Assembly: GCA_046594005.1 (NCBI GenBank) | Contig: JBKJQM010000293.1 | Span: forward strand, 1 to 32,945 | From: Mycobacteriales bacterium | GTDB lineage: Bacteria > Actinomycetota > Actinomycetes > Mycobacteriales > SCTD01 | Reading direction: 5' to 3' | DNA length: 32,945 nucleotides | Shown: piece after piece, positions 4,029 through 31,561 of the stretch | How the letters are laid out: every line of letters begins with the position of its first letter | Numbering within the stretch: position 1 is the stretch's first letter | Position numbers and translations under genes: made by a program | The notes under the pieces: generated by a model | Database searches by the model: none | What the model was told of the DNA's origin: nothing | The model's input: the letters and a program-made list of their open reading frames with translations, nothing else

Positions 4029-4031
4029 TGC

Positions 4032-6956: not shown

Positions 6957-8266
6957 GCGACGTCGACCAGAGCCGGCAGCGGGGGCAGGCGGGGCGGAGC
7001 CGGACCGGCCGGCTGGGTGTTCCTGAGCAGCAGCGCCACGACCGCGAGGGCACCGGTGACCGGCACCAGGCGACCTTGCGTCCAGTACAGGTAGCGCGGC
7101 AGCTCCAGCACGCCGACGAAGACGACCGGGTAGGCCAGCAGCCCGACCACCGCTCCGTCCCGGAAGAGCACCCACAGCCGCCCCAGCAGCAGTCCGGCCA
7201 CGAGCATGAAGAGCAGACCACCGACAGTGCCGAAGTCCACGAAGGGTGAGCAGATGCCGCAGGGGTTGTTGAACTCGGGGTTGGTGTGCGCCCGCAGCAC
7301 CTGCGCATACACCTCGGTCGCGCTGCGCCCGGTCAACCGGGTGTAGAGGTCGAGCTGCGCGATGCCCGGCGCCGTCCAGAAGGCTTCCAGGCTGAAGTAG
7401 GGCAGCCGACCCGGGAAGTGCCCGAACTGGAGCTGCGCTGCGCCGTTGTTGTACGCGGTGGCGTAGTACCCGGCGAGGCGGTCGACGACGAACTCCGGGT
7501 AGGACGACGTGGTCCGGGTGCGGAAGAAGGTCCAGCTCCGCGAGTACTCGAAGATGCCGAACAGGACGACGAGACCGGGTAGTCCCACGGCCGGTGCCAA
7601 CGCCGCGCGCAGGTCGCCCCGGCGTTGTCGCGCCACCGCGACGACCAGGATGAAGGGCACCACCACCTCGATGAGCGCGAGTCGCTCGGTGAGGTAGAAG
7701 GCGCGCAGCAGCCCGAGCACGACGACGACGGCCATCCTGCGCGCGACGAGCGCCTGCCGGCCGCTCGTCCAGCACAGCGCGGCCAAGGTGCTGTACGCCA
7801 CCCCCAGCTGGGTGAACGACGTGATGCCGGCTATCGGAGCGAAGGCCCTCTCGATGTCGCCGGAGAAGTTGTCCTGCTGCGTCAGCGCAGACAGGAGCAC
7901 GCCCGGTGAGGCGCCGCGCAGGGCGCCCGCAGCCCCCAGGCACACGTAGCCGAACATCGTCAGCCCGAAGCACACCGCAGCGGCGCGCTCCAGCACGTCG
8001 AGCTGCGCGGAGTCCAGGGCGGCCCACCGGTCCGGCCAGCGCCGTGGAGCTGCTGCCAGAGCGACGAGCACGCCCAGGAGCAGCGTGCCTGCGGCGGCGG
8101 CGAACAGCAGGCTCGTCGTGTCGTCGAGCAGACGCGGCGTTCGGTAGAGCAGCCGGAAGCTCAGGTCCGAGGTCGACCAGGCCAGCCAGATGGACACCGG
8201 GAGGACGAGGAGCAGACCGCCGACAGGGGACGCCCACCACAGACCGTGGGCCGGTCCCCGGCTCAC
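6953..8266 (-). CDS. Polytopic membrane protein, oligosaccharide repeat-unit polymerase (Wzy-like)
   Basis: 437 aa and multi-TM, with a large loop containing YSRSWTFFRTRTTSSYPEFVVDRLAGYYATAYNNG. It sits between a co-polymerase gene and the flippase gene. Its start overlaps the upstream stop (8263-8266). Confidence 0.65.
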   Translation of the reverse strand: MSRGPAHGLWWASPVGGLLLVLPVSIWLAWSTSDLSFRLLYRTPRLLDDTTSLLFAAAAGTLLLGVLVALAAAPRRWPDRWAALDSAQLDVLERAAAVCFGLTMFGYVCLGAAGALRGASPGVLLSALTQQDNFSGDIERAFAPIAGITSFTQLGVAYSTLAALCWTSGRQALVARRMAVVVVLGLLRAFYLTERLALIEVVVPFILVVAVARQRRGDLRAALAPAVGLPGLVVLFGIFEYSRSWTFFRTRTTSSYPEFVVDRLAGYYATAYNNGAAQLQFGHFPGRLPYFSLEAFWTAPGIAQLDLYTRLTGRSATEVYAQVLRAHTNPEFNNPCGICSPFVDFGTVGGLLFMLVAGLLLGRLWVLFRDGAVVGLLAYPVVFVGVLELPRYLYWTQGRLVPVTGALAVVALLLRNTQPAGPAPPRLPPLPALVDVA

Positions 8267-10167
8267 TGCCTGGCGCTCTGCTGCAGCGGGTCGAGGGCTC
8301 CGACGGCCGCGGTCACGTCCGGCGACTCATCAGACGTGCCCGCGGCAGCTGTCGGCTCGTCCCCAACCAGTGGTGGTGCAGCCTCTTCGACCGGCCGCGT
8401 GCTGCTCGGTCCGGTCCTTCGCCCGGCGCGCCGGGCCCAGGATCCGGCCGTGGCGGCGGCAGGTGCCTGCTGCACGGCCTCGACCGCGGGTGGCTGCTCG
8501 ACGGCTTCGACGATCGCAGGTGGCTGCTCGACGGCTTCGACCGCGGGTGCCTGCTCGACGGCCTCGACCGCAGGTGGCAGCTCGACGGCGTCGACCGCGG
8601 GTGCCTGCTCAGGCGCTGCATCGGCAGCGTCGGCGCTCGGGCCCAGGTCCTGCGGACCGCCCGGCAGCGCCGGCGACTGCTGCGGGTCCCGGGACCGGCG
8701 CAGGCCTGCCACGCGTGCACCGAGGCGGTGCGCCCGGCGGGGGTGGACGAGGAGCGCGCCGAGCAGGGGGATCGCCTGCCGCTCGAACATCTGCTGGACC
8801 GTCTCGACGTCGGCGCGGTGGGTGACGTAGCGACCCACGACCAGCACCGCACCGCCCGCTCGCTCGGCGAAGTCCACTGTCGTCGTCGAGTCCGACAGGG
8901 ACGGCGCGTCGACCACGACGGTCATGCCCGTGCCGATGCACGCGTCGAGCAGCCCCTGCGCCGACAGCTCCCGCAGCAGCAGGCGGTCACCGTCGCCCGG
9001 CCCTCGGGCCAGCACGAGGACGCCGGGGACGCTGCTCGACACGGCAGAGGCGAAGACGTCGCCAGGCGTCAGGATGCCGGTCGGCGCCGTCGTGAGACCC
9101 CGGTCGGCCCCGGCGACGCCCAGCTTGTGGGCCGCGGTCCCGTCGCGCCCCTGGATCACGTCGGCCGCCAGCACGAGGAGCACGTCCGAGCGCTCGGACA
9201 GGCACACGGCCGCCGCGGCCGCCGTGAAGCTCGTGCCGACTCGCGACGTCGCGCCGAGCAGGACCAGGACGCCGCCACGGCCGGGCCGGACGAGCTGCGC
9301 GACGAGCAGCCGCAGCGCCCTGGCTGCAGGCCCCTGCCCGGCGAAGTCCTCGAGCCCCCCGGAGTGGTGACGCAGCTCCGGGTGCAGGACCGGGAAGCCC
9401 CCGCCGGCGAGGTCTGCCCCCGAGCGCACCCGTCGCGTCAGCCGGTTGACCAGCATGAGGAGAAGGACTGCGAGGACCGCGCCGACGAGCGCGCCCAGTG
9501 CGCCGTCCCGTGTGACGGGCGGGACGCCGCCGCCACTGGCAGTGGGTGCTTGCACCACGGTCACCGACTGCTGCACGTCCGCCGTGGCCCGGTAGAGCCC
9601 GCTGCGCACCGCGAGCAGCCGGCCGTACTCGCCCCGCAGGGCGGACGCGCCCAGGCCATCGTCAGACAAGCTCTTCTCGAGGCGGCTGAGCTCTCCGTCC
9701 ACGATCGCCGCGGCCCGGTCGACCTGTGCCCGCAGGCGGGCCTCGCGATCAACCGAGTACGCGGCGATGACGGCTTGGACGGAGGACAGCGCGCGCGCCG
9801 ACGTCGCTGCCTCTGCGGTGACGCTGACGATGGTGCTTGACCCCACCTGCACCGCCGTGTAGCTCACGGGCTCGGAGCCACCCAGACGCTTCTCCACGTC
9901 CCGGTGCAGGCTCGGTCCGCTCAGGACGATGAGCTCGCTCTGCACCATCGCCGTCGGGTCCTCCTGAGGCGCCGGCACGTCCTGGTCGAGGGCGGACGGC
10001 AGCGCGACCGAGATGACCGCCTTGGCGCTCGGGAGCTGAGGATGTGCGCGAGCCGCTGCGAGGCCAGCAGTCCCTCCGAGCAGGCCACCGACGAGCAGGA
10101 AAACGAGCAGGACCAGCGGCCGTGGCCGCGCCGGCTGCAGGCGTGACGCCGTGTTCGCCACAGCCAT
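8263..10167 (-). CDS. Polysaccharide co-polymerase (Wzz-type, 2 TM plus coiled periplasmic region) fused to a BY-kinase-like P-loop domain and a repetitive C-terminal tail
   Basis: Start chosen at the ATG at 10167, preceded by AGGGAGG. The track start at 10257 adds 30 codons with visibly lower GC3. TM1 is PLVLLVFLLVGGLLGG and TM2 is LGALVGAVLAVLLLMLV. The P-loop region reads LGATSRVGTS (no Lys), and the Walker B-like motif is MTVVVDAPS. The tail contains PAVEAVEQ repeats. Confidence 0.75.
   Translation of the reverse strand: MAVANTASRLQPARPRPLVLLVFLLVGGLLGGTAGLAAARAHPQLPSAKAVISVALPSALDQDVPAPQEDPTAMVQSELIVLSGPSLHRDVEKRLGGSEPVSYTAVQVGSSTIVSVTAEAATSARALSSVQAVIAAYSVDREARLRAQVDRAAAIVDGELSRLEKSLSDDGLGASALRGEYGRLLAVRSGLYRATADVQQSVTVVQAPTASGGGVPPVTRDGALGALVGAVLAVLLLMLVNRLTRRVRSGADLAGGGFPVLHPELRHHSGGLEDFAGQGPAARALRLLVAQLVRPGRGGVLVLLGATSRVGTSFTAAAAAVCLSERSDVLLVLAADVIQGRDGTAAHKLGVAGADRGLTTAPTGILTPGDVFASAVSSSVPGVLVLARGPGDGDRLLLRELSAQGLLDACIGTGMTVVVDAPSLSDSTTTVDFAERAGGAVLVVGRYVTHRADVETVQQMFERQAIPLLGALLVHPRRAHRLGARVAGLRRSRDPQQSPALPGGPQDLGPSADAADAAPEQAPAVDAVELPPAVEAVEQAPAVEAVEQPPAIVEAVEQPPAVEAVQQAPAAATAGSWARRAGRRTGPSSTRPVEEAAPPLVGDEPTAAAGTSDESPDVTAAVGALDPLQQSARQ
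8467..8610 (-). repeat. In-frame tandem repeat, five units of 27 nt (one of 30 nt) plus a partial unit, encoding (A/P)PAVEAVEQ
   Basis: On the + strand the units start at 8467, 8494, 8524, 8551 and 8578, with a partial unit at 8605. The consensus is ctgctcgacggcttcgaccgcgggtgg. The repeat lies inside the 3' end of the co-polymerase CDS. Confidence 0.9.
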
Positions 10168-10253
10168 GTCAGAGCCTCCCTGTGCGGGCCTGCACCAGCC
10201 GCGTCCCCGCGGCACGAGGCTACCGGGAAGCGGCGCATCTCGGACGTCGACGC

Positions 10254-11150
10254 TCACCCCTCCGGCGGCACCGGCGGCGGGGGACGCCAGTGCGCGGCCC
10301 GGACGTCGCCGAAGGGCCGCTCACGCAGCCCCTCGAGGCGACCGAGCAGCCGTGCCCGCGCGAGCCGCAGGGAGAGCGTCGGGGACGGGTCGTGCGCGAG
10401 CGCGCGCACAACCGGCCCGGCCAGGATCCGGAGCCGCGCCGCCAGGGGGTAGTCGTGCAGGCCGTAGACGCGGCCCGTCCCGCGGGCGTACGCCCTGTGC
10501 TTGGCGACGTACTCCGACGCGGTGAGGCCCCGACGCTCGCCGGATGCCCAGACGCCGACGTCCGGCCTGCTCACCACCCGGCCACCGCTGCGCAGCACCG
10601 TGAGCAGCAGGTCGGTCCCCTCCCCGGACCCCCAGGGGGACCCGCACCCGGTGCCCAGGTCCTCCCGGAACCCGCCCGCCTGGAGAAAGCACTCCCGGGT
10701 GACGAAGGTGGCTGGCTCCACCGCCAGCCAGACGGTGCGGGCGTCGAGCGGCTGCCCGGCTCCCGGCAGGACGAAGCGGGGGCCGTCCGGGTCCGCGAGC
10801 GTCGCGGCAAGTGCCGCCGGCCGGTCCGGGCCGCAGAAGGCCGCGGCGACCGCCGCCAGGCTGTCCGGCGGGTACTCGCAGTCGTCGTTCGGGAAGCACA
10901 GCACGTCGACGCTGTCGCCCAGCACGGCTACAGCGGCGTTCCGGCCGGCGCTGGCGCCACCACGGCTCTCGATGACGGTGACCGGGAACGGGAGCTCGTC
11001 GCACGGCAGGTCGAGCGGGTGCCCGGACTGGTTCGCGACGACGACTGCCGCTGGGACGTGGGTGGACCGGGCGGCCGAGCGCAGCAGGTCGCTCAGGGCC
11101 GGGCGTCCGATGGTGGGCACCGCCAGGCCGAGACGCACGGGGACCGTCAC
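10254..11150 (-). CDS. Glycosyltransferase family 2 (GT-A)
   Basis: Only the C-terminal 298 codons of track ORF 10254..11636 are protein-like. Start at the GTG at 11150 (or 11138). The N-terminus VRLGLAVPTIGRPALSDLL is GT2-like, and the motifs SAGRNAA and CFPNDDCEYP (DxD-like) are present. Confidence 0.8.
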   Translation of the reverse strand: MTVPVRLGLAVPTIGRPALSDLLRSAARSTHVPAAVVVANQSGHPLDLPCDELPFPVTVIESRGGASAGRNAAVAVLGDSVDVLCFPNDDCEYPPDSLAAVAAAFCGPDRPAALAATLADPDGPRFVLPGAGQPLDARTVWLAVEPATFVTRECFLQAGGFREDLGTGCGSPWGSGEGTDLLLTVLRSGGRVVSRPDVGVWASGERRGLTASEYVAKHRAYARGTGRVYGLHDYPLAARLRILAGPVVRALAHDPSPTLSLRLARARLLGRLEGLRERPFGDVRAAHWRPPPPVPPEG

Positions 11151-14258: not shown

Positions 14259-16091
14259 TCAGGGAAGGGGCGCCCAGACGCGGACGCCCTCGACGTCGAA
14301 CGCGGGCCCGGGCCGGCTGGCTGCCAGAACGGCGTCGAGCTGCCGGCCGTGCTCCGTCACCACCCAGTCCGTGCTGCGGACCGGCGCCGCGCCTGCAGGC
14401 AGCACGGTCCTGGTGAGGTGACGGCCGAACAGCGGGTACACGAAGCGGACGCGTGTCGCCTCCAGGTCGACGACGAGCGTGGCGTCGTCGGGGACCTGCT
14501 CCAGGAAGCGGTACTCGGGCAGGAAGGTGCGACCGAGGCTGCGATCCACCGCCGGCGCACCGACGAGTGACAGGACACGCCGTGCCGGCAGGGGCGCTGA
14601 ACGAGACGCCGGATCCACCTCGACGAGGACGAGCGAGGCGCCGACGACAGCGAGGACCGTCGTGACCGACTGCACGCCCCGCGCCAGCCGGCCAGGACGG
14701 AGGGACTGGAGCAGCGCGACGATCGCCAGGACGCCCAGTGCCGCGAGCGGCAGGGTGAAGCGCGCCCACCAGCGGTACGGCTGCACCAGGAAGACGGCCA
14801 GCACGGGGACTACCGCCGCCAGCACCGGGCTGCGACGTCGCCACAGCAGGACCACGAACGGCAGGAGCAGCGGCAGCCCGAGCCAGACCCAGAGCGGACC
14901 CAGACCCCCGGAGCGCTGCTGGTAGTCGTACGACCCGTAGCGCCAGGGGGCGAGGTCCGACGCCCAGGACCGGAGGACGGCGACCGGCCACGGCTGGTCC
15001 GCACCGGCGTCCGGTCGCGTGAGCGTGTCGGAGAGGCGCGCCGGCCCCTCCCACACGGTGCGACCACCGGCGCGGATCTGGAACGGGTACAGGGGGTTGC
15101 CGGTGTCCAGTGCGTTGCGCACGTACCACCAGGAGCCGAGCACGGCGACTGCACCGAGCACGCCCGCGAGACAGAGACCGGCGTGCGCGCGCGAGAGCCG
15201 ACCACGCCGCACGTGCAGGCCGGACAGCACTCCGGCCGTCGCCACCAGGGCCACTGCCCACAGCAGCCCGGTCCCCTTGGAGCCGGCGAGCAGACCCGCG
15301 CAGGCGGCGGGGACCGCGAGCCCCGACGCGCGCCCGGTGATCCCGAAGCGCACCAGACCGTGCAGCCCCGACAGCACCAGCGCTGCGGAGATCACGTCGA
15401 CGTACGGCGTGGGCGCCTGCGCAAGCACGGCCGGCGTCAGCACGAACAGGCTCGCGCCGGCGGCGGCGCCGGCGCGTCCCACGCCGGCACTGCGGCCGAG
15501 ACCGGCGACAGCGGTCGCCGCCAGGACCGTCGCCAGCACCTGGACGGTGCCGACGAGGGCGTCGCTGCCGTGCAGGAGGACTGGCCATGCGAACAGCAGC
15601 TCGGGGTTCAGCGGGTAGTACGCACAGCACAGGCTCAGCGGCGAGATGTCCAAGCTCTCCCCCTGCACCCAGGTGGCCACGGTCGTGAGGTGGTAGCTCA
15701 GTCCGTCGTAGGCGTACGGCGGGAGCACCAGCGCGACCAGCAGCTGCCACGACAGAGCCGTCGCCGCCAGGACGAGCAGCAGCCACTGCCAAGGCCGGCG
15801 CCGGAGCGCGGGCCGGGGTGGCCGCCAGACGGGTGCGCGCAGCCCTCCGCGCTGCCGCAGGAGCAGGACCGCCGCTCCCGCCTCCACCGCGTGCGCGGCG
15901 AGCAGCCAGTCGGCACGCAGGTGGCCCGTCAGCCCGATCAGGCCTTCGGCCGCGGTCACCAGCACGACGGCGGCGACCGCCGCGGTGATGCACGCGTCCA
16001 GCGGACCCTCGGGTCGCAGGAGGGCTGCGCCGGCCGCACTGGCGATCAGGACGAGCACGACACCCAGGAGCAGCACCCACGGGCTCGCCAC
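14259..16091 (-). CDS. Polytopic membrane protein, GT-C-fold-like glycosyltransferase (ArnT/PMT-like) with a C-terminal soluble domain
   Basis: 610 aa, with at least 10 hydrophobic helices. The first external loop reads PPYAYDGLSYHL (an acidic residue typical of GT-C enzymes). The C-terminal roughly 130 aa are non-membrane. Confidence 0.65.
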   Translation of the reverse strand: MASPWVLLLGVVLVLIASAAGAALLRPEGPLDACITAAVAAVVLVTAAEGLIGLTGHLRADWLLAAHAVEAGAAVLLLRQRGGLRAPVWRPPRPALRRRPWQWLLLVLAATALSWQLLVALVLPPYAYDGLSYHLTTVATWVQGESLDISPLSLCCAYYPLNPELLFAWPVLLHGSDALVGTVQVLATVLAATAVAGLGRSAGVGRAGAAAGASLFVLTPAVLAQAPTPYVDVISAALVLSGLHGLVRFGITGRASGLAVPAACAGLLAGSKGTGLLWAVALVATAGVLSGLHVRRGRLSRAHAGLCLAGVLGAVAVLGSWWYVRNALDTGNPLYPFQIRAGGRTVWEGPARLSDTLTRPDAGADQPWPVAVLRSWASDLAPWRYGSYDYQQRSGGLGPLWVWLGLPLLLPFVVLLWRRRSPVLAAVVPVLAVFLVQPYRWWARFTLPLAALGVLAIVALLQSLRPGRLARGVQSVTTVLAVVGASLVLVEVDPASRSAPLPARRVLSLVGAPAVDRSLGRTFLPEYRFLEQVPDDATLVVDLEATRVRFVYPLFGRHLTRTVLPAGAAPVRSTDWVVTEHGRQLDAVLAASRPGPAFDVEGVRVWAPLP

Positions 16092-16100
16092 TCCCGGAAC

Positions 16101-16427
16101 CTAGCGCTCCGGCGGCGGCGGTGGCAGACCCACGACGACCAGGCCCCGTACGTGCAGGTCCACGTAGAGGTCCAGGGCGAGTGCCGCGGGGGGGACGGCC
16201 CCGGTGAGGACGACCATCCCCAGGTCTTCGACGCGTTCCAGGGCGGCCGTCACAGCGGCCGTGCCGCTGCTGGCGACCACGACCGCGACCGGCCGTACCA
16301 CCGCGTCGGGCACCTGCAGCCGCGCGCCGAGCAGCCGACGCACCTCGTCGGCCAGCAGGCCGGTCCCTGCGACCTCCACCCGGTCCGCGCCCGGGGGGAG
16401 CGCGGCGAGGACGTCCTGGGCGCTCAC
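16101..16427 (-). CDS. Small protein resembling the C-terminal half of an MDR (zinc-ADH-like) nucleotide-binding domain
   Basis: The GTG at 16427 overlaps the upstream TGA (GTGA, 16424-16427). GC3 is near 100 percent. VAVVVASSGTAAVTAALERVEDLGMVVLTGAV...LHVRGLVVVG parallels AVVIEATGDPAAVGGAVAAARDGGTVVLLGSS...RRVRLVGAHV in the neighbouring gene. Confidence 0.55.
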   Translation of the reverse strand: MSAQDVLAALPPGADRVEVAGTGLLADEVRRLLGARLQVPDAVVRPVAVVVASSGTAAVTAALERVEDLGMVVLTGAVPPAALALDLYVDLHVRGLVVVGLPPPPPER

Positions 16428-18699: not shown

Positions 18700-19464
18700 T
18701 CAGCGCCGAAGCAGGCCGGTCGGGAGAGCGGTCGCCGCGCGGACGGCCAGGGACGGCCGCTGCCGCAGCCGCAGCCGCACGGGACGACCGTCCACCAGGA
18801 CCTCGCGCAGACCGGGGCCGACCTCACGGCCGCCAGCGATGTGCTCGGCCCACCACACGTTGGAGGACACGAACTCCAGCGGCTCGACCAGGCGCTGCTC
18901 ACGCAGGGGCTGCGTGCCGTAGGCGGCCAGGGCGCGCTGCAGCTGCGCCTGCGACGACCAGCCCTCGGTGCCCTCGGGGTCCCCGACGTGCTCGCGCGGT
19001 GCACGGGCCGGCGAGTGAGCTGCCTCGAAGTCGTAGGCGCCACGCCCGAAGATGAGCACCAGGTTCCGCTCCGTCTCCAGCATCGAGTCGCTCGCGTGCA
19101 CGCGGTAGCCACCGCCGGTCCAGCGCCGGTACCGCAGGCGCGCGTCGTAGACGTTGGTGTTCAGCACCCGCCGGCCCCGGCCCGTGCGCCGCAGGCCGAA
19201 CCGCGGCCTGGTGTCCTCGACGACCACCGCGAGGAACGGCCCGGTCCCGCAGTGCAGCTCCTTGTCCGACCCCGGTGGAAGCGCGTCGCCGTACATCCTG
19301 GTCAGGCTCCGCGCGAAGCGCTCGTCGGGCGTCCAGGTCACCTCGACGACGTCGAGGACGCGGAAGCGCGTCGCCAGGTCCTCGAGGATCCTGCGCTCCT
19401 GTGCCCGGGCTTCGGACCACACGACGAAGACGTAGCGCGGCCGACGCGCGGCCGTCGTCAGCAT
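18700..19464 (-). CDS. Hypothetical protein; the N-terminal roughly 140 aa show nucleoside-diphosphate-kinase-like motifs and the C-terminal roughly 110 aa are of unknown function
   Basis: ATG at 19464, 4 nt after the upstream stop. The frame is clean and GC3 is high. TGPFLAVVVED and YRVHASDSMLETERNLVLIF resemble the NDK motifs SGPVVAMVWEG and N.IHGSDS.ESA.REI.LWF. This is a by-eye similarity only. Confidence 0.7.
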   Translation of the reverse strand: MLTTAARRPRYVFVVWSEARAQERRILEDLATRFRVLDVVEVTWTPDERFARSLTRMYGDALPPGSDKELHCGTGPFLAVVVEDTRPRFGLRRTGRGRRVLNTNVYDARLRYRRWTGGGYRVHASDSMLETERNLVLIFGRGAYDFEAAHSPARAPREHVGDPEGTEGWSSQAQLQRALAAYGTQPLREQRLVEPLEFVSSNVWWAEHIAGGREVGPGLREVLVDGRPVRLRLRQRPSLAVRAATALPTGLLRR

Positions 19465-19468
19465 CGGG

Positions 19469-20152
19469 TCATCCCGGTCGCCGTACGCACGCGCCGACGA
19501 CGAGGGGCCGTTCGTCGTCCTGCTGGGCGAGCGTGCCGTCCCGCAGGTCCTCGGCCGCGAGCCCGAACAGGAAGGCCCGGCCGGCCAGCCCGTTCCCCAG
19601 TCCGCTGACCTCCGTCACCGACCCCTCCGGGACGACCGTCGAGAGCAGCTGCCGCATGCCGGCCGGCGTCCACCTCCAGAGGTCGTGCGTGCCGTCCACC
19701 CGGCTCAAGCAGGGGACCGTCAGCAGGAGCGCGCCACCCGGGCGCAGGCCGCGCACGAGGTTCGCTACGGCGGTAGCCGGGTCCGAGAGGAACTGCAGGG
19801 TCTGGGTGACCACGGCGGCGTCGTACGACATGGGCGGCAGCGTGAGGGGGTTGCAGAGGTCCCCGACGATGGTCGCTCTCGCGTTCGAGGGGTCGTTGTC
19901 GACGATCTCGACCGCGTCCGCGCCCAGCCGCGAGGCGTAGCGGTCGTCCTTCACCTCGAGCACTCGGCCGCGCACGCAGGACCGGTGGGCCTGCAGGTAG
20001 CGCTCGATGTACCACCGGTCGACAGGGGTCCCGCGTTGGGAACCCCACCGCGTGAGCGCGCGCACGCGACCGAGGGACCCGAAGCGGCCCATGAGCACGA
20101 GCCGCTCGGCGCCGGCCACGTGCTGCACCGCCCTGCGTGCGAGGGTCCTCAC
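19469..20152 (-). CDS. Class I SAM-dependent methyltransferase
   Basis: The GTG at 20152 overlaps the upstream TGA (GTGA). Supporting motifs are GTPVDRWYIERYL, RVLEVKDDRY, DAAVVTQTLQFLSDP and LRPGGALLLTVP. Confidence 0.8.
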   Translation of the reverse strand: MRTLARRAVQHVAGAERLVLMGRFGSLGRVRALTRWGSQRGTPVDRWYIERYLQAHRSCVRGRVLEVKDDRYASRLGADAVEIVDNDPSNARATIVGDLCNPLTLPPMSYDAAVVTQTLQFLSDPATAVANLVRGLRPGGALLLTVPCLSRVDGTHDLWRWTPAGMRQLLSTVVPEGSVTEVSGLGNGLAGRAFLFGLAAEDLRDGTLAQQDDERPLVVGACVRRPG

Positions 20153-21093
20153 GCGTCCGCCCCGCGCCGGCTCCGGAGCCTCCACCGACCCCGAGAGGAG
20201 GCCGGCAGCAGCTCCGCGAGCCGGGCCGCGAGCTCGGCGCCCGACCAGTCCCTCACGTTGAGCCGCGGCAACCGGTGCGCGTCGACGCGGCCGCTCACGG
20301 CGCGCCGCTCGGTGGTGCAGGCCACCGCGCACCCCGCCTCCTGCGACAGACGAGGAGCCAGGTCGCCGACCGCGCGAGCGGTCCCGAAGGGGTAGGCGAA
20401 GGTGGTGACGGGCCGGCCGAGGAGCTGCGAGAGGTCCTGCACCGAGCCGAGGATCTCGGACCGCTGCAGCGCCTCGGACTGGCCGGCCAGCTGGAGGTGG
20501 GTGCGGGTGTGCGCGCCGATCTGCGCGTGCTGCAGGCGGGCGAGCCCGCTGACCTGCTCGTCCGTCATCGAGCGCTCGTCAACGGGCGGGGCGGGCGCGT
20601 CGAGCCGCTGCGCGACCTCCTCGACCACGGCTACCACCTCGTCCGGGGGCAGCGGTCGCAGACGCCGGTGCAGGAAGCGCAGCGAGGTCTCCCGGGCACG
20701 GCTGTCGTTCAGCGCCAGCCACAGGGGACGGCCGGCCACGCGGACGTCGATGCCCTCAGACATCGGCCGGTCCGCCAGGAGGGCAGTGGCCAGCTCGTCC
20801 CACCAGAACGCCCGGCCACCCAGCCGCCCCGTGGTGATGAAGTACGTCGCGGGCAGCCCGGCCTGCTCGAGCACCGGCGCTGCCGTCGTCGCGTTGTCCG
20901 CGTAGCCGTCGTCGAAGGTGATGGCGACCGTCGGGGTGCGACCCGTGCCCATCACCTCCTCCAGGGGCACGACGCAGCCGAGCCTGCCGAGGTGCTCGGC
21001 GTGCTCAGCGAAGCGCTCCGGGTGCACGGCCAGGCCGTAGGGGTCGTTCCGCACCGCTGCGATGCGGTGGTACATGAGGACGACCCCGCTCAC
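20149..21093 (-). CDS. Polysaccharide deacetylase, CE4 / NodB homology domain
   Basis: The GTG at 21093 overlaps the upstream TGA (GTGA). Supporting motifs are VVLMYHRI, AITFDDGYADN, GAHTRTH and FAYPFG. Confidence 0.85.
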   Translation of the reverse strand: MSGVVLMYHRIAAVRNDPYGLAVHPERFAEHAEHLGRLGCVVPLEEVMGTGRTPTVAITFDDGYADNATTAAPVLEQAGLPATYFITTGRLGGRAFWWDELATALLADRPMSEGIDVRVAGRPLWLALNDSRARETSLRFLHRRLRPLPPDEVVAVVEEVAQRLDAPAPPVDERSMTDEQVSGLARLQHAQIGAHTRTHLQLAGQSEALQRSEILGSVQDLSQLLGRPVTTFAYPFGTARAVGDLAPRLSQEAGCAVACTTERRAVSGRVDAHRLPRLNVRDWSGAELAARLAELLPASSRGRWRLRSRRGADA

Positions 21094-21584
21094 CCCGGCA
21101 CCTCGGCGATCCACAACCGGCGGCGACCCCCACCGTGCACGGCGACGACGCGGGTCTGCTCCCGGAGCGCCCGGAGCTCCGGGCCGTCCTCGGACCATGC
21201 GGCCCGGTCCAGCAGCACCAGGAGGCCCGCCGCCCGGCTCGCCGGCAGCACCGCGCGCAGCCTGCCCCGGAGGTCGGCTCCCGGATCGAGCACGACCACC
21301 GTGTCCCACCGTGCAGCCGGCAGCGATGCGCTGCCATCGACCCTCGAGCAGACGGTCACCTCGTGCATGTGCGGGCTCGTCCCGGCGACGTCGACCTCCA
21401 CCGACGGGAGCGCCTGCCGGGCGGCGAGCCCGGCACCCACCACCAGGACGCTCCCCAGGTCGAGGGTGGACAGGGCGCGCCGCAGCAGGCGGCGGTTGGC
21501 CGCCACGTCCCCCACCGGCACGGCGCGCTCTCCCAGCCAGCTGCCGGCGAGCTCGCGCACGAGCGCCCTCGCGCGGAAGGTCAC
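21090..21584 (-). CDS. Small Rossmann/methyltransferase-like protein (164 aa), function unknown
   Basis: The GTG at 21584 overlaps the upstream TGA (GTGA). GC3 is very high. Supporting motifs are SVLVVGAGLAARQ, WDTVVVLDPGADL and LRAVLPASRAAGLLVLLD. Confidence 0.55.
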   Translation of the reverse strand: MTFRARALVRELAGSWLGERAVPVGDVAANRRLLRRALSTLDLGSVLVVGAGLAARQALPSVEVDVAGTSPHMHEVTVCSRVDGSASLPAARWDTVVVLDPGADLRGRLRAVLPASRAAGLLVLLDRAAWSEDGPELRALREQTRVVAVHGGGRRRLWIAEVPG

Positions 21585-22543
21585 CGTGTGCCGTCCCGGA
21601 GCGCGCGGCGCGGGACGGCAGCCAGGAAGAGGGTCGCACGGGCCCTGGTCGAGGCGCGCCGCCCGCTCGCGGCCCGCAGCGCGAGACGGGTGGCACGAGG
21701 ATCCTGCGCGCTCCGGGCCGCGCGCGCGAGGCGCTCGCGCCACTCCTGCTCGGTGCGCTGGAGCTGCCGACGCTGGCGCCTGTCCCGCGCGAGCGGTCGG
21801 CTGTGCTGCAGCACCGCGAGCACGCCCAGGGAGAGCGCCAGCTTGTCGCCCGTCAGGCTCCGCGTGCGGCGGCGGTACTCGTACAGGGGCTCACGGACGA
21901 GCCCTGCGCGGTGTCCGGACAGCAGGAGGCGGAGCCACAGGTCCCAGTCCTCCGCGGACCGAGCACCGTCGCGGTAGCCGCCGGCACGGCGGAAGGCGTC
22001 GGCCCTGACGGCCCCTGCTCCGAGGATGAAGTTGCTCCGCAGGATGCCCAGCTCCTGGTCCTGCGTGCAGAACTCGCGGACGTCGTAGTAGGTCCGCTCG
22101 TCGGGGCGACCGTCGCGGACCACGACGGCGTCCGTCGTGAGCACGGCGAGGTCCGGTCGTGCGGCGGCCGCGGCCGTCAGCGCCGCCGCGCGGCCGGGGA
22201 GCCACACGTCGTCGGCGTCCAGGAGCGCGAGCAGGTCCCCCTGCGCCGCGGCGGCGGCCCGGTTGCGCGCCGTTGCCAGCCCGGCGTTCGGTCCTCGGAC
22301 CAGGCGGATGTGGCGTGCGAAGGGTGCGAGTGCACGGTCGATGTTGTCCGTGGAGCCGTCGTCGCTGACGACGACCTCGTCAGGAGGCGGCGACTGAGTG
22401 AGAAGCGACTCCAGCGCCTCACCGACCGTGTGGGCGCCCTCGTACACCGGCACCAGGACCGACAGCCTGGGTAGCGGGCCGGGCCTGGTGCCGGGCGGCG
22501 GTGCCGGCGCCGAGAGCAGCAGCGGGTCGCGCATCACGGCCAT
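21581..22543 (-). CDS. Glycosyltransferase family 2 (GT-A)
   Basis: ATG at 22543. Supporting motifs are LSVLVPVYEG, VVVSDDGSTD, ATARNRA, LLDADDVW and SAEDWDLWLRL. Confidence 0.85.
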   Translation of the reverse strand: MAVMRDPLLLSAPAPPPGTRPGPLPRLSVLVPVYEGAHTVGEALESLLTQSPPPDEVVVSDDGSTDNIDRALAPFARHIRLVRGPNAGLATARNRAAAAAQGDLLALLDADDVWLPGRAAALTAAAAARPDLAVLTTDAVVVRDGRPDERTYYDVREFCTQDQELGILRSNFILGAGAVRADAFRRAGGYRDGARSAEDWDLWLRLLLSGHRAGLVREPLYEYRRRTRSLTGDKLALSLGVLAVLQHSRPLARDRRQRRQLQRTEQEWRERLARAARSAQDPRATRLALRAASGRRASTRARATLFLAAVPRRALRDGTR

Positions 22544-24114: not shown

Positions 24115-25293
24115 TCAGCCGAGCTGCGTGACCCGGAAGGGCACGTCGAGGACGACGGTCCGGTCGCGGACTCGTGCGGGGTCGCCGTGCAGGGTGAAGC
24201 TGGCGGCGGTCTCCTCGTAGTGCACGTTGTCCTCCTTGTCCCCGAGCCAGACACCGAGGGTGTACTCGCCGTGCGCGAGCACCGGCGGCAGGGAGATCTC
24301 GGCGCGGTACCGCCCGACCCCGAAGGCCGCCTCGTGGTTGTGGCTCATGGTCTCGTCCACGACGCGCACGCCGTGGTCGTTCGTGATGAAGATGGAGAGG
24401 TCCAGGCCTACGCGCGGCTCGAGCATCTCGAACTCCACGACCACCGTCAGTGGGTCCTCCCGGAGCAGCGGCCCGTCCCCGCCCTTCGTGGCCCGCACGT
24501 TCACAGCGGTCAGGCGGCCGGCCTCGGAGCCGCCCATGAAGGAGGTCCCGCCGCCGATGAGCTCGTAGCCCGACGTCAGGTAGTCGCGGACGACCTGGTG
24601 GGTCGGGCCGTCGTCGACGACCTGCCCGCGCTCGAGCCAGACGGTGCGCGCGCAGAGCTTGCTGAGGCTGCTCAGGTCGTGGCTGACGAAGACCACCGTG
24701 CGCCCCTCGGCCTCGGCCAGCGACATCCGGCCCAGGCACTTGCGCTGGAACTCGGCGTCGCCGACCGCGAGCACCTCGTCGACGATGAGGATGTCGGGGT
24801 CGAGGTGCGCCGCCACCGCGAAGGCGAGGCGCAGGTACATCCCGCTCGAGAAGCGCTTCACGGGCGTGTCGAGGAAGCGCTCGGTGCCGGCGAAGTCGAC
24901 GATCTCGTCGAAACGGGCGGCCGTCTCCCGCCGGGTCATCCCGAGGATCGCCGCGTTCAGGAAGACGTTCTCCCGGCCGGTGAGCTCGGGGTGGAAGCCG
25001 GTGCCGACCTCGAGCAGAGCCGCGACCCGGCCGCGGGTCCGGCTCACGCCCTCGGTCGGCGTGGTGATGCGCATCAGCACCTTGAGGATGGTGCTCTTGC
25101 CCGCGCCGTTGCGACCGATGAGGCCCAGGGCCTGGCCGTCCGCGACCGCGAAGCTCACGTCCCGCAGCGACCAGAGGTCCCGGTCCTGCGGGCGGTGCCG
25201 CCGGCCGAGCTGGAGCACGGTCTCCCGCAGGTTGCCGCGCTCGCCGAGCCGGTAGCGCTTGCTCAGGTGCTCGACCTGGATGCGGTCGCTCAC
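24115..25293 (-). CDS. wzt: ABC transporter ATP-binding protein for glycan export (Wzt/TagH type) with a C-terminal extension of about 150 aa
   Basis: Walker A GRNGAGKST, signature FSSGMYLRL, Walker B ILIVDE and H-loop FVSHD. The C-terminal domain is beta-rich (VVEFEMLEPRVGLDLSIFITNDHGVRVVDE...YTLGVWLGD). The GTG start directly abuts the wzm stop. Confidence 0.9.
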   Translation of the reverse strand: MSDRIQVEHLSKRYRLGERGNLRETVLQLGRRHRPQDRDLWSLRDVSFAVADGQALGLIGRNGAGKSTILKVLMRITTPTEGVSRTRGRVAALLEVGTGFHPELTGRENVFLNAAILGMTRRETAARFDEIVDFAGTERFLDTPVKRFSSGMYLRLAFAVAAHLDPDILIVDEVLAVGDAEFQRKCLGRMSLAEAEGRTVVFVSHDLSSLSKLCARTVWLERGQVVDDGPTHQVVRDYLTSGYELIGGGTSFMGGSEAGRLTAVNVRATKGGDGPLLREDPLTVVVEFEMLEPRVGLDLSIFITNDHGVRVVDETMSHNHEAAFGVGRYRAEISLPPVLAHGEYTLGVWLGDKEDNVHYEETAASFTLHGDPARVRDRTVVLDVPFRVTQLG

Positions 25294-26118
25294 TCAGATC
25301 ACGTCGGCGAAGGACCGGGAAGCCCGCAGGAAGTACACGACTCCCGCCACGGCGAGCACTACGGCCATGGCCGTGGACACGGCCAGCGTGGCGTCCGGTG
25401 CCGGGCCGGAGACCAGGACGAACCTCCCTAGCTCCAGGACGCCCACCGCCGGGTTGAGCGCGTAGAGGTAGCGGGACGCGCCGTCGAGCGACTGCGCGGA
25501 GTAGGCCACCGGGCTCAGGAACAGGAAAGCCTGCAGGACCGGTGAGACGAGGTGGCGCACGTCCCGGAACCGCACGTTGAGCGCCGCGAGCGCGCAGGTC
25601 ACGCCTAGTGCAGTGAGGGCGAGCAGGGCGAGCCACACGGGCAGCAGCAGGAGGGCCGCTGACGGGGCCACGCCGTACAAGAGGCAGAGCAGCAGCAGCA
25701 GCAGCAGGCCGACGCCGAGGTCGATCATGGGCGGCAGCAGCGAGGCCAGCGGCGCGATGAGGCGCGGGAAGTAGACCTTGGTGATCAGGGAGCTGTTGCC
25801 GACCAGCACCTCGCTGCCCTTGCCGATGCACTGCGACAGGTAGTTCCAGCCGAGCAGACCGGCCAGCGCGAAGACGGGATAGGGCGTTCCACCGGTGTCG
25901 ATGTCCGCCAGCCGGTCGAAGACCAGGGTGAACGCGAGCACCGTGATGACCGGCTGCGCCACCACCCACAGCACGCCGAGCACGGCCTGCTTGTAGCGCA
26001 CCCGCAGGTCGCGGGAGGCGAAGAACAGCACCAGCTCACGGCCTGCCCACAGCTCCGGCAACGACGCCCGAACGCTGGTGCGGGGGCCGTTCTCGAGCCA
26101 CGGCCCCGTCGTCGCCAT
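25294..26118 (-). CDS. wzm: ABC-2 type transporter permease for glycan export (Wzm/TagG type)
   Basis: 274 aa. RDLRVRYKQAVLGVLWVVAQP is the hallmark ABC-2 N-terminal motif. There are 6 hydrophobic segments. Confidence 0.9.
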   Translation of the reverse strand: MATTGPWLENGPRTSVRASLPELWAGRELVLFFASRDLRVRYKQAVLGVLWVVAQPVITVLAFTLVFDRLADIDTGGTPYPVFALAGLLGWNYLSQCIGKGSEVLVGNSSLITKVYFPRLIAPLASLLPPMIDLGVGLLLLLLLCLLYGVAPSAALLLLPVWLALLALTALGVTCALAALNVRFRDVRHLVSPVLQAFLFLSPVAYSAQSLDGASRYLYALNPAVGVLELGRFVLVSGPAPDATLAVSTAMAVVLAVAGVVYFLRASRSFADVI

Positions 26119-26219
26119 TGCCGGAGACTAGCCGCGGCAGCGGAGCGCCGCAGGAGCGGTCGACGGCCGCCGCGACCTCCGTCGTCGTCGGTCTGCGGTC
26201 ACCCGTGTGACGGTCCCGC
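26119..26219. promoter_or_regulatory. Divergent intergenic region upstream of wzm
   Basis: Positional only: a 101-nt gap between the wzm start and the + strand GTG at 26220. Confidence 0.25.
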
Positions 26220-26411: not shown

Positions 26412-26458
26412 CCACGCGATGACGTGGACGCGCCTGCTGCTCGGCGCCATGATGCCGC

Positions 26459-28162
26459 GTGCCCGCCGCCGCGTTGTCCCGACGCGACGTGCTGCTCGCC
26501 GCCGCCGGGGGCCTGGTCCTTCCCCCCTTGCTGTTCTGGCCCTTGCTGCGCGAGCTCGGGTCCGCGGTACCGAAGGACGTCGGCGACCCGCTGCCCCAGG
26601 CGTGGCAGCTGGCCTGGGGGGGCCATGCACTGCGGTCGCAGCCGCTCGACCTGTTCCAGTCGAACCAGTTCTTCCCCGGCCGCAACACACTGGCGTACTC
26701 GGACTCGCTGCTCGGCTACGCCCCGGCGGGACTGCTGGGCAGCGGCCCCGGCGATGCGGTGCTGCGCTACGACGTGCTCTTCCTCCTCGCCCCTGCGCTG
26801 GCGTTCGCCGCCACGTTCCTGCTGGCACGGCAGCTCGGGCTGGGCCGGAGTGGTGCCGCGGTGGCCGGCGTCGCCTTCGGGTTCTCGCCGTACCGGCTGG
26901 AGCAGTTCAACCACCTGCACGTCCTGAGCAGCGGCGGCATCCCGCTGGCGCTGCTGCTGCTCCTGCGCGGGCACGGTCGCGGTGACCCGCGGACGGTCTT
27001 CGCCGGCTGGGCTGTCACCGCCTGGCAGCTGACGCTCGGCTTCTCCCTCGGCCTGCTGCTCGTCTACCTCATCGGCGGCATCTGGCTGTGGCTGCTTGTC
27101 GAGTGGCTGCGTGACGGACGTCCGGCGCTGACCCGGAGCACTCTCACGGGCCATGTCGCCGGCCTCTCGCTCCTCGCGGGGACGGCGTTCCTGGTCGCCC
27201 AGCCGTACTTAGCAGTCGTCGAGGAGTTTCCCGAGGCGCGACGCACACTCGCGGACACAGCACGCTTCTCCGGGCCGTTGGTGTGGTCCTACCTGTCGGC
27301 GGCGGAGGAGTCGACGCTCTGGGGGCCGCTGACCTCAGGGGCACGACAGCACCTCACCTTCGCGTCCGAGCAGACGCTGTTCCCTGGGCTGACGGTCGTG
27401 CTACTCGGACTGTCTGGCCTGCTGTGGCGCAGAGCGCCGCTCGATCGTCGCCTCCGAGTGTTCCTCGCTGTCGCAGTGACAGCGTGCGCCGCCTTCGCCC
27501 TGGGAACCGCGGCTGAGGGTGCGCGCAGCTTCAGCCCCTACCGGCTGCTGTACGAACTGGCGCCAGGGTTCCAGGCGGTGCGGGTGCCTGGTCGCATCAC
27601 GACGCTGACGACGCTGGGACTGTCGGTGCTGGCCGGCTGCGGTGCCCAGCGGTGGGCCGGTGCCGTCGCCGCACGTTGGCCCCGCCTCGCTCCCTGGGCT
27701 GCCGCCGGCCTGGTCGGGCTCGTGCTGTTCGAGGGCTCTTCACTGCGGACGCAGGACGAGGACCCCGGTTCTTTCCGCACCCCGATCGTGGAGGCCCCTC
27801 CTGTGAGCTTTGCGGACGTCAAGGGGCCGGCGCTGCACCTGCCGGCCGAGCCGGAGGACAACCGTCGCTACCTGCTGTGGTCCACGGACGGTTTCGAGGA
27901 CATGGCGAACGGGCGGTCCAGCCTGGTGCCTCAGCGGTTCCTGGACCTGGTGGAGGGCGCAGCGACCTTCCCGGACCGCGAGTCGGTCGCGCGAGTGCGC
28001 GCCTTCGGACTGTGCACGGTGGCCCTCCATCGTGCGCACCTGGCAGGCACGCCCTGGCAGGCGTGGCAGGACCGCTCCATCCAGGGGCTCGGCATCCGTC
28101 GCACCGTCTGGGAAGACCTGGTCGTCTACGACCTCAATACGCCAGGGGGCGCCTGCCGCTGA
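26459..28162 (+). CDS. Polytopic membrane protein, possible GT-C-like glycosyltransferase with a C-terminal soluble domain
   Basis: GTG at 26459; 567 aa. The first loop reads VPKDVGDPLPQAWQLAWGGHAL, and there are about 10 hydrophobic helices. The last roughly 150 aa are soluble (YLLWSTDGFEDMANGRSS). Confidence 0.7.
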   Translation: MPAAALSRRDVLLAAAGGLVLPPLLFWPLLRELGSAVPKDVGDPLPQAWQLAWGGHALRSQPLDLFQSNQFFPGRNTLAYSDSLLGYAPAGLLGSGPGDAVLRYDVLFLLAPALAFAATFLLARQLGLGRSGAAVAGVAFGFSPYRLEQFNHLHVLSSGGIPLALLLLLRGHGRGDPRTVFAGWAVTAWQLTLGFSLGLLLVYLIGGIWLWLLVEWLRDGRPALTRSTLTGHVAGLSLLAGTAFLVAQPYLAVVEEFPEARRTLADTARFSGPLVWSYLSAAEESTLWGPLTSGARQHLTFASEQTLFPGLTVVLLGLSGLLWRRAPLDRRLRVFLAVAVTACAAFALGTAAEGARSFSPYRLLYELAPGFQAVRVPGRITTLTTLGLSVLAGCGAQRWAGAVAARWPRLAPWAAAGLVGLVLFEGSSLRTQDEDPGSFRTPIVEAPPVSFADVKGPALHLPAEPEDNRRYLLWSTDGFEDMANGRSSLVPQRFLDLVEGAATFPDRESVARVRAFGLCTVALHRAHLAGTPWQAWQDRSIQGLGIRRTVWEDLVVYDLNTPGGACR

Positions 28163-30895: not shown

Positions 30896-31561
30896 TCAGG
30901 GGCATGACGGCTGCACCAGTGCCCGCAGCGAATCGACGTCCAGCCCCACGAGGGACCCGACCACCACCCGGCGTGGACGCGGCTCGAGCACCACGCCAGC
31001 AATGCTCGGGACCGCGACGACCGCGCAGCCGGCCGCCTCGCCACTTGCGACGCCGGACGGGGAGTCCTCCAGCACCACGCACCGGGAGGGGACCACGCCG
31101 AGCCGGGCTGCCGCCGTGAGGTAGGGCTCGGGGTCCGGCTTGCCGCGGGTCACCTCGTCACCGGCGAGCGTGAACGCGAACGGACCGATCCCGTGGGCCA
31201 GCACCGCGTCGACGAGCACGCGGTACGACGAGGACACCAGCGCCATCGGCACCCCCTGGCCGTCCAGCTCCGACAGCAGGTCCGCGACGCCCGGCATCAA
31301 CGGCAGGTCGCCGGCGAACAGCTCGCGCATCCGGAGCAGCAGCCAGGCCGACGTCTCGGCAACGCGCGCCGCGGTGGCCTCGACCCCGAAGTACGTCAGG
31401 ATCCCGGGCACGGCGACGTCGAGCCGGGTCCCGACGACGCGCGCCTTGACCTCGTCGTCCCACTCGCCGCCGAGCGAGCGCGCGAGCTCGACCTCGGCCA
31501 CGGTCCACAGCGGCTCGCTGTCCACCAGCAGGCCGTCCATGTCCCACAGGACCGCGTCCAC
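30896..31561 (-). CDS. HAD-superfamily hydrolase (beta-phosphoglucomutase/phosphatase-like subfamily IA)
   Basis: Motif I is LWDMDGLLVDSE, motif II is LVSSS, motif III is RGKPDPEPY and motif IV is VLEDSPSGV. Start chosen at the GTG at 31561. The track start at 31582 adds 7 codons with poorer GC3. Confidence 0.85.
   Translation of the reverse strand: MDAVLWDMDGLLVDSEPLWTVAEVELARSLGGEWDDEVKARVVGTRLDVAVPGILTYFGVEATAARVAETSAWLLLRMRELFAGDLPLMPGVADLLSELDGQGVPMALVSSSYRVLVDAVLAHGIGPFAFTLAGDEVTRGKPDPEPYLTAAARLGVVPSRCVVLEDSPSGVASGEAAGCAVVAVPSIAGVVLEPRPRRVVVGSLVGLDVDSLRALVQPSCP

Follow-up and report, generated by a model that had tools for sequence, protein, structure and literature searches.

Nucleoside diphosphate kinase (NDK; Pfam family PF00334) is commonly seen as a housekeeping fold with one function. 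In NDK, Asn115 (human numbering) and the K-P-D/N Lys both contact the ribose 3'-OH and the phosphates. Diverged NDK folds also occur in multi-domain, non-housekeeping proteins of eukaryotes, for example in RP2, whose C-terminal NDK-like domain is not known to be a kinase, and in the group II NME axonemal proteins, some of which are likewise not known to be kinases. In the ATP-binding cassette (ABC) transporter-dependent O-antigen pathway of Escherichia coli O9a, the chain terminator is WbdD, a methyltransferase joined to a eukaryotic-type kinase, which places methyl phosphate on the terminal mannose, where it is recognised by the carbohydrate-binding module of Wzt (PMC3482155). The gene considered here encodes a 254-aa protein with a predicted NDK-like domain and lies in a glycan cluster on a stretch of 32,945 nucleotides from a Mycobacteriales bacterium (assembly GCA_046594005.1, contig JBKJQM010000293.1, positions 1 to 32,945). 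This whole stretch is referred to as the window.

The protein falls in a large branch of the NDK fold that lacks annotation and is new in both its architecture and its biological setting. The family has more than 1000 clusters, carries an invariant catalytic-type His, and is found in loci for glycan polymerases, terminators and exporters; it is unnamed and is covered by no model in Pfam or NCBIfam. Taken together, these features point to an unrecognised step in the tailoring of cell-surface polysaccharides. Literature searches returned no description of an NDK-like domain in polysaccharide or O-antigen synthesis.

The NDK-like Domain

The open reading frame (ORF) runs on the minus strand from an ATG at 19464-19462 to a TGA at 18702-18700, according to the ORF list and a codon check. 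A first-pass annotation, made from the sequence alone, had the coordinates and the length right and left the strand unstated; the plus-strand translation of 18700-19464 is a meaningless reading and not the gene. The fraction of G+C at third codon positions (GC3) is 0.91 in a window of 73.8% GC, and a database search retrieved 85 clusters of homologues, all tagged 'hypothetical' and some from Geodermatophilus. On these two grounds the gene is taken as real. Single-sequence searches of Pfam, NCBIfam and the PDB sequences gave no match, which bears out the earlier remark that the product has no family signature.

The evidence for the fold comes from profiles and models. An alignment of 38 of the 85 homologue clusters, designated A1, was used both for a family profile and for an AlphaFold model of the protein, which has a predicted local distance difference test score (pLDDT) of 90.6 and a predicted template-modelling score (pTM) of 0.86. 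In a Foldseek search of this model against the PDB, the best 50 matches were all NDKs, with a probability of about 1.0 and template-modelling (TM) scores to the target of 0.47-0.59. A second model, of a 413-aa relative (P0082, 33% identical) built from a separate alignment, had a pLDDT of 90.4; its best 50 PDB matches were again NDK-type chains only, with TM scores up to 0.64 and a root-mean-square deviation of about 3.2 A. Axonemal NME-type chains occur among the Foldseek matches.

Sequence profiles lead to the same fold. The A1 profile had a sole match among PDB sequences, the E. coli NDK; this match was weak (E=0.67), in the register that had been proposed from the sequence. Two of the 38 relatives reach the Pfam NDK model at E=0.15, and the target has no match to it at E<=1. 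Alignment of A1 by hhalign with five canonical NDKs, whose sequences served only as a comparison profile, gave a probability of 73% and E=3e-5 over 72 columns with His placed on His, in a register that agrees with the independent PDB alignment. In E. coli numbering this register pairs H123 with His117, S125 with Ser119, R92 with Arg87, K/R109 with Arg104, Y120 with Asn114 and N134 with Glu128.

The predicted domain consists of a strand (residues 10-15), a helix (17-33), a strand (35-43), two helices (48-58 and 67-72), a strand (77-83), a beta-hairpin (89-102), a helix (103-115), a strand (122-124) and a helix (128-139). The motifs on which the NDK likeness was first proposed fall on these elements: YVFVVW forms the first strand, ILEDLATRF lies within the helix that follows, FLAVVVE is strand 77-83, and RVH is strand 122-124, ahead of the helix at 128-139. 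The resemblance to NDK thus exceeds chance, and at the level of the predicted fold the claim is well supported; profile search, structure prediction and fold comparison all indicate the NDK pattern that had been seen in the N-terminal half. That the gene is real and its product NDK-like in fold can be regarded as almost certain.

The likeness extends to details. Like E. coli Ndk (2HUR) and the enzymes of Mycobacterium tuberculosis (4ANC) and Dictyostelium (1NDP), the domain is predicted to have the NDK alpha/beta fold with a His on strand 4, a Ser or Thr two residues later, equivalents of Arg87 and Arg104, and a helix with acidic residues after the His. In contrast, the family is only about 15% identical to NDK, leaves PF00334 unmatched, has Trp for Lys12, Tyr or His for Asn115, Asp or Asn at His+11 and an extra Glu at His+7, and always has a second domain; it occurs in glycan loci at every locus examined, as opposed to the housekeeping context of NDK. 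It fails four of the defining NDK features that were tested. Judged by its sequence, the protein is a member of a separate family and not a canonical NDK, because the Lys12, Asn115 and His-partner positions differ and the Pfam model is unmatched. Of the NDK reading in the first-pass annotation, the fold, the His and the Ser therefore stand, and membership of the NDK family proper does not. RP2 and the group II NME proteins are similar in being diverged NDK folds outside housekeeping, and differ in being eukaryotic, whereas the present family has a bacterial glycan context and an invariant His with surrounding charged residues.

Conserved Residues of the Putative Active Site

Conservation was counted in 230 aligned family sequences, with identities down to about 30%. 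His123, which aligns with the catalytic His of NDK, is His in all 230. The residue two positions on (125) is Ser or Thr in 229 of 230, so that both the His and the Ser noticed at the outset are kept. The equivalents of the phosphate-binding residues Arg88 and Arg105 (human numbering) are present as Arg92 in 204/230 and as Lys or Arg109 in 230/230. Other conserved residues are particular to this family: Arg113 is invariant (230/230), Glu130 is found in 229/230, and Tyr58 and Lys68 are essentially invariant, a constraint that also holds inside the short subfamily to which the window protein belongs. Within A1 the invariant residues are I26, F34, W44, Y58, G73, D84, R113, G119, V122, H123, E130, G165 and W169.

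Other NDK positions have been rebuilt. The Lys of the K-P-D/N motif is absent, as had been noted, and an invariant Trp16 stands directly after strand 1 in its place (223 of 223 non-gap positions); the equivalence with Lys12 is drawn from position in the secondary structure, without superposition. Trp44 is equally constant (227/227 non-gap positions). The position of Asn115 is Tyr120 in the window protein and His in 136/230 relatives, and that of the NDK His partner, the Glu at His+11 that is hydrogen-bonded to the catalytic His, is Asp in 143/230 and Asn in 83/230, including the window protein. The Kpn-loop region of NDK is replaced by the beta-hairpin at 89-102 and the helix at 103-115.

From the sequence comparison, then, the NDK-like fold appears to keep a phospho-histidine apparatus, made up of His123, the Ser/Thr at +2, two aligned phosphate-binding Arg/Lys residues and the invariant Arg113, Glu130, Tyr58 and Lys68, and the residues with which NDK holds the ribose and the gamma-phosphate appear to be replaced (Lys12 by Trp16, Asn115 by Tyr or His120). 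A His-dependent phosphotransfer is a reasonable reading of these invariant residues.

The Second Domain

Most members of the family are about 400 aa long, Evansella vedderi J2S74_002749 being one, and consist of the NDK-like domain, a domain with an HxDxD...D pattern and a helical tail. The consensus of these long forms after the NDK-like domain is DL.G..GW.S...LF..LN....YVVLRN...(H.DIDLLV)...(FD.R.VGDGYYD..W)...FY.LLYHAL.HK; it comprises a Gly motif, a strand bearing HxDxD, another Asp as the third acid and a helical portion in which H...K is conserved. In the P0082 model the second domain is arranged as a strand, G-x-x-G, a helix, a strand, the DxD strand, a helix, two strands with the third Asp, and helices.

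The window protein aligns to this domain up to residue ~238 and is without the helical tail. Its three acidic positions are occupied by P195, E197 and R232. Loss of the acids follows length: 87 of the 93 forms under 300 aa keep none or one of the three, and 41 of the 47 forms of 560-720 aa keep two or three. The short actinobacterial subfamily conserves instead a D/N202-x-W204-W205 motif in this domain. The window protein's C-terminal domain, described as unplaceable when first noted, indeed has no profile or PDB match, and on alignment it is a degenerate copy of a conserved family domain: a derived, shortened version that is probably non-catalytic. With the acidic triad lost, no candidate active site other than the NDK-like one is intact in this protein.

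A profile of the isolated second domain matched nothing in the PDB or Pfam at any threshold, NCBIfam searches with six full-length members gave no match apart from kinase hits on a fused member, and the Foldseek lists of both models were filled by NDK matches. Matches in BFVD were confined to giant-virus fusion proteins that offered no functional label. At the level of motifs, the second domain resembles pol-beta-type nucleotidyltransferases and LicD-like proteins in its G-x-x-G, helix, H-x-D-x-D strand and later Asp strand, and, in the long forms, in a helical region with a conserved H...K after the third Asp. It differs in a longer spacing between the Gly motif and DxD than the classical signature has, and the window copy is without the acidic triad altogether. 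LicD-type enzymes also attach phosphate-linked groups to glycans. A kinase catalytic loop was considered for the motif HGDIDLLVEN and dropped, since the spacing is unlike HxDxxxxN and there is no conserved Asn at that place. The Arg-rich helices that end the window protein possibly serve for contact with the membrane or a partner.

In some short-type members the C-terminus is extended by about 150 further residues, which include hydrophobic stretches and the conserved motif KxFKHTxxDxxGGxVDDAxTW. It is seen in three actinobacterial proteins of about 400 aa (P0021, P0029 and P0031) and at 8001-9239 of locus L042, and is possibly a membrane anchor. The helical tail that the 400-aa class has in other phyla is a different, unrelated element.

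Distribution and Fusion Partners

An exhaustive profile search over 1.84 billion representatives, with clusters formed at 50% identity, gave 1174 clusters at E<=1e-3, of which 568 reach E<=1e-30. Lengths group around 250, 380 and 610 aa, with giants of up to 3793 aa. The family occurs in no fewer than ten bacterial phyla and also in giant viruses. Members found by a scan of reference genomes come from Actinomycetota, Saccharibacteria, Clostridia, Bacillus, Paenibacillus, Evansella, Colwellia, Gemmatimonas, Bacteroidota, Chlorobiota, Anaerolineae, Chthoniobacteraceae (phylum Verrucomicrobiota) and others. Annotated plasmid and phage collections held no copies. In BFVD, proteins of Catovirus (A0A1V0SAX2) and Yasminevirus (A0A5K0UAL1), both named 'glycosyltransferase', and of Mimivirus LCMiAC01 (A0A481Z0W0) match both domains over 400-450 columns; these viral proteins are 477-863 aa long. 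Their occurrence suggests that the module has been exchanged between bacteria and the glycosylation systems of Nucleocytoviricota. Named relatives retrieved with the member from Evansella vedderi are all 'hypothetical' or 'uncharacterized', and among these relatives precomputed Pfam annotation places nothing on the module itself, only partner-type domains (Pkinase and the family 2 glycosyltransferase domain, GT2) and one PF13946.

Every locus examined for the family is a glycan cluster. The family is dedicated to glycan assembly, and its form in the window is a derived short one. Members of the ~610-aa class end in a protein-kinase-like domain of the eukaryotic type (ePK-like) with intact HRD..N and IDF motifs. 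A separate Pkinase/APH/Kdo-like kinase of 241-263 aa is encoded by the following gene in Evansella, Paenibacillus and Colwellia, the two genes overlapping or lying 1-4 nt apart. A true kinase is fused or adjacent in 11 of 38 loci, and in none of the short actinobacterial loci or the window; this count takes matches at E<=1e-30 only, weaker 'fused' matches being spurious hits to the tail of the second domain.

Further fusions join the module to other enzymes of glycan synthesis. For example, it is fused to a methyltransferase, GT2 and GT1 in L014, to GT4, a kinase, tetratricopeptide repeats (TPR), GT2 and GT1 in L012, to GT2 in L024 and to TPR and GT2 in L020. This partner set is that of the building blocks of polymerase/terminator enzymes. 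In a metagenome-assembled genome of Gaiellaceae (L008, 1823-3511) the module is joined directly to a polysaccharide deacetylase domain. That fusion, and the constant presence of a deacetylase gene beside the window's subfamily, hint at a functional link between deacetylation and the module. The module is not confined to ABC-transporter-dependent pathways, since in Colwellia sp. C1TZA3 (L015, 5068-15961) the member and the partner kinase are flanked by genes for a Wzx-type flippase on one side and a Wzc-type tyrosine kinase/co-polymerase on the other.

Genomic Context

The window contains an ABC-transporter-dependent glycan cluster with two GT4 and at least four GT2 glycosyltransferases, two polysaccharide deacetylases, a methyltransferase, an oxidoreductase fusion, a membrane protein of 610 aa, the permease Wzm, a Wzt of 392 aa and a Bac_transf priming transferase. 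The exporter genes match ABC_tran (2.3e-20) and ABC2_membrane (4.3e-14). The Wzt matches Wzt_C at E=2e-5 with 25.1 bits, below the cut-off of 30.4; the homologous Wzt in L039 has a recorded Wzt_C hit. Close relatives of the window likewise have a 392-aa Wzt with a Wzt_C-like extension. The gene had been described as part of a glycan operon, tightly packed between a methyltransferase and a two-domain oxidoreductase. Both points hold: it is a constant member of the glycan clusters examined, with 4 nt between the methyltransferase stop and its ATG, which has GGGA directly 5', and 23 nt between its own stop and the GTG of the oxidoreductase fusion.

Nine loci of the subfamily have usable flanks, namely the window, L001 of Geodermatophilus normandii, L003, L004, L005 and L039-L042. 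A methyltransferase homologue is present in all nine and adjoins the target in six (window, L005, L039, L040, L041 and L042); it does so in L041 even though gene order there is inverted. A deacetylase is likewise present in 9/9. The block GT2-GT2-small ORF-deacetylase-methyltransferase-target has the same order in L039, L042 and L001. The oxidoreductase fusion is found in five loci (window, L003, L039, L040 and L041) and is adjacent in two (window and L039), and a tight linkage with the target was rejected on these counts. Co-occurrence is thus tight for the methyltransferase and loose for the oxidoreductase.

The resemblance to WbdD is an analogy of context. Both systems have an ABC-2 Wzm/Wzt pathway and a Wzt with a C-terminal extension, and both pair a (here putative) phosphotransfer protein with an S-adenosylmethionine (SAM) methyltransferase, although methylation of a phosphate would here be a matter of analogy; in other loci, members of the family lie next to ePK-like kinases or are fused with them, and they also occur in giant polymerase/terminator fusions. 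Unlike WbdD, the window protein has no Pkinase, APH or ePK-like domain, and no coiled-coil ruler was seen in the window system. A profile of the partner kinase compared with the six-frame translation found no homologue in the window. The window methyltransferase had no match in the PDB, and the partner kinase of the relatives matched generic protein kinases, with WbdD absent from the best 60 of 158 matches. Homology to WbdD was rejected on these two results.

Proposed Function

Catalytic phosphotransfer of some kind by the His is rather probable. The best explanation overall is that the protein is a phospho-histidine transferase, working through His123 and acting on a glycan, to which a probability of about 0.4 is given; a glycan or glycan precursor as the substrate is a tentative assignment. 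The protein would be cytoplasmic. His123 would take a phosphoryl group from a nucleoside triphosphate (NTP). The recipient would be linked to the glycan instead of being a nucleoside diphosphate (NDP): either a hydroxyl of a sugar or a phosphate, carried by the lipid-linked polymer or by its terminal residue, with Trp16 and Trp44 perhaps stacking on the sugar. The adjacent SAM methyltransferase would then modify the same end, and the phosphate or methyl-phosphate mark could be read by the C-terminal domain of Wzt as an export signal. The protein would in this way be a functional analogue of the WbdD chain terminator. That it makes a (methyl-)phosphate cap together with the methyltransferase is doubtful.

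Several points weigh against a glycan phosphotransferase. The function is read from sequence, predicted fold and context. The equivalents of Lys12 and Asn115 are lost, so that even NTP binding is only putative. The window has Asn134, not Asp or Glu, at the position of the NDK His partner. The greatest difficulty is that many relatives are fused to a bona fide kinase, beside which a second glycan kinase looks redundant; the NDK-like module may carry out a second step, for example transfer onto a phosphate, which is the native chemistry of NDK, or the making of a phosphodiester. No sequence relationship to WbdD was detectable for the methyltransferase or the partner kinases. In the window, the Wzt matches Wzt_C below the Pfam cut-off, three subfamily loci have no long Wzt nearby, and one relative (L015) is in a Wzx/Wzc-type locus.

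The same site could instead serve local nucleotide handling, in which case the protein would be an NDK specialised by location and not by chemistry. It would interconvert NDP and NTP, or remove NDP beside the GT2 and GT4 enzymes, and so relieve product inhibition and feed sugar-nucleotide synthesis. The fold with its His, Ser/Thr and two Arg/Lys equivalents fits such a role, as does the frequent fusion to glycosyltransferase and kinase domains, whose reactions release NDP and ADP, respectively. However, the K-P-D/N Lys has become an invariant Trp, Asn115 has become Tyr or His, the Kpn-loop region is rebuilt as a hairpin and helix, the Pfam NDK model is unmatched, and the tight pairing with the methyltransferase is left unexplained. 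Local nucleotide handling is considered unlikely.

There is a slimmer chance that the protein is a non-catalytic module that binds a nucleotide, a phosphate or a glycan end and acts as an adaptor, a chain-length regulator or a recruiter of the methyltransferase and glycosyltransferases. The short form has no acidic triad in its second domain, residues canonical for NDK are absent, and a scaffolding role is plausible for a family that occurs inside giant multi-domain polymerase/terminator polypeptides; non-catalytic NDK-like domains are on record (PMC3124502, PMC13256974). Nevertheless, His123, Arg113 and Glu130 are kept in at least 229 of 230 sequences down to about 30% identity, a pattern that marks an active site and not a binding surface.

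A phosphodiester-forming transferase is quite improbable. In such an enzyme, attack by His123 on the beta-phosphate of an NDP-sugar or NDP-alcohol would yield a His-phosphodiester intermediate, from which sugar-1-phosphate or alcohol-phosphate would go to the glycan; in the long forms, nucleotide and Mg would be bound by the DxD domain. The two invariant Trp residues, in place of the NDK contacts to ribose and gamma-phosphate, could stack on a sugar, the long forms do have a Mg-type HxDxD...D site beside the NDK-like domain, and the loci encode sugar-nucleotide enzymes; but literature searches gave no precedent on the NDK fold, the window form has lost the acidic triad, and the scheme is built purely by deduction. 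Finally, a chance ORF with an accidental NDK-like motif, a concern in a high-GC window with many long spurious ORFs on both strands, is excluded by its GC3 of 0.91 in the right frame, by 85 close and 1174 representative homologue clusters sharing the conserved motifs, by a confident AlphaFold model and by conserved synteny.

A still wider scheme can be framed, which is doubtful as a whole. The family would be a new carbohydrate-modifying class, an NDK-fold phospho-His transferase with two sugar-stacking Trp residues where NDK has its ribose contacts. Its substrate would be not NDP but a glycan end, which it would phosphorylate, or a phosphate on the glycan, which it would extend. The actinobacterial members would stand in for the WbdD kinase and cap ABC-exported polymers together with the methyltransferase; in other phyla and giant viruses it would be part of a three-site tailoring module with the DxD domain and a kinase. 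Phosphorylation of glycans by this family would amount to a new enzyme class for carbohydrate chemistry, and it could explain how chain ends are marked for ABC export beyond the proteobacterial WbdD paradigm. Even if the function differs, defining the family would improve the annotation of clusters for capsules, O-antigen-like polymers and cell-wall polymers.

Other Features of the Window

The coordinates of the gene, its domains and residues, and its neighbours are collected in Table 1.

Table 1. Positions of the NDK-like gene, its parts and the neighbouring genes in the window
Feature	Coordinates	Strand	Description
Target gene	18700..19464	minus	254 aa; NDK-like N-terminal domain, degenerate second domain, basic C-terminal tail
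NDK-like domain, residues ~9-150	19015..19440	minus	From Foldseek, hhalign and the AlphaFold model
Trp16 codon	19417..19419	minus	Follows strand 1 directly, at the place of the K-P-D/N Lys of NDK
Trp44 codon	19333-19335	minus	Second invariant Trp
Arg92, Arg109, Arg113	19126..19191	minus	Basic residues; R92 and K/R109 aligned with phosphate-binding Arg of NDK
His123 codon (CAC)	19096..19098	minus	Aligned with catalytic His of NDK; predicted phospho-acceptor
Glu130 codon	19075..19077	minus	Family-invariant acid at His+7, in the helix after the His strand
Asn134 codon	19063-19065	minus	Position aligned with the His-partner Glu of NDK (His+11)
Second domain, residues ~155-238	18751..19002	minus	G165-x-x-G168-W169 kept; acidic triad lost
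Arg-rich C-terminal helices, residues 239-254	18703..18750	minus	Model helices 239-246 and 249-253; lower pLDDT
Class I SAM methyltransferase, ~227 aa	19469..20152	minus	Pfam Methyltransf_11 at 5.5e-7; 4 nt upstream of target
MDR/ADH-type dehydrogenase + GFO/IDH/MocA oxidoreductase fusion, 750 aa	16424..18676	minus	Pfam and NCBIfam
Polysaccharide deacetylase	20149..21050 (upstream end approximate)	minus	Polysacc_deac_1 at 6.4e-18
ABC-2 exporter	24115..26127	minus	Wzt-like ATPase 24115-25293 and Wzm-like permease 25294-26127

The longest ORFs of the methyltransferase (19469-20332, minus strand, 287 aa) and the deacetylase (20149-21696, minus strand, 515 aa) overlap, and both are too long. Methyltransferase homologues have 226-244 aa and deacetylase homologues about 300 aa, and in L039 and L042 a gene of about 159 aa with no assigned function lies between GT2 and the deacetylase. 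The true starts are therefore further in, and a small gene is probably present at about 21050-21580.

The 750-aa oxidoreductase fusion keeps its length in the related clusters L039 (8786-11038), L040 (842-3094) and L041 (2906-5164). Two different sugar dehydrogenase folds in one polypeptide are unusual, and the enzyme may supply a keto- or epimerised sugar for this glycan. It is followed by a conserved pair, an ORF of about 106 aa (16101-16427, minus strand) and the ~610-aa membrane protein (14259-16091, minus strand); the same pair occurs in L039 (11035-13217), L040 (3091-5257) and L041 (1074-2882). The membrane protein has no Pfam match apart from a weak one to DUF2142 in L041, and may be a GT-C-like extracytoplasmic glycosyltransferase.

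Four further sizeable ORFs of high GC3 within the glycan cluster have no significant Pfam match. Three of them are at 6953-8326 (minus strand, 457 aa), 8263-10320 (minus strand, 685 aa) and 26453-28162 (plus strand, 569 aa); the fourth, at 3183-4031 (minus strand, 282 aa), has only a weak match to DUF707. The right end of the window (30896-32945, minus strand) is outside the glycan cluster and encodes a HAD-family hydrolase, followed by a B12-dependent methionine synthase whose gene is cut by the end of the window, so that its C-terminal part alone is present.

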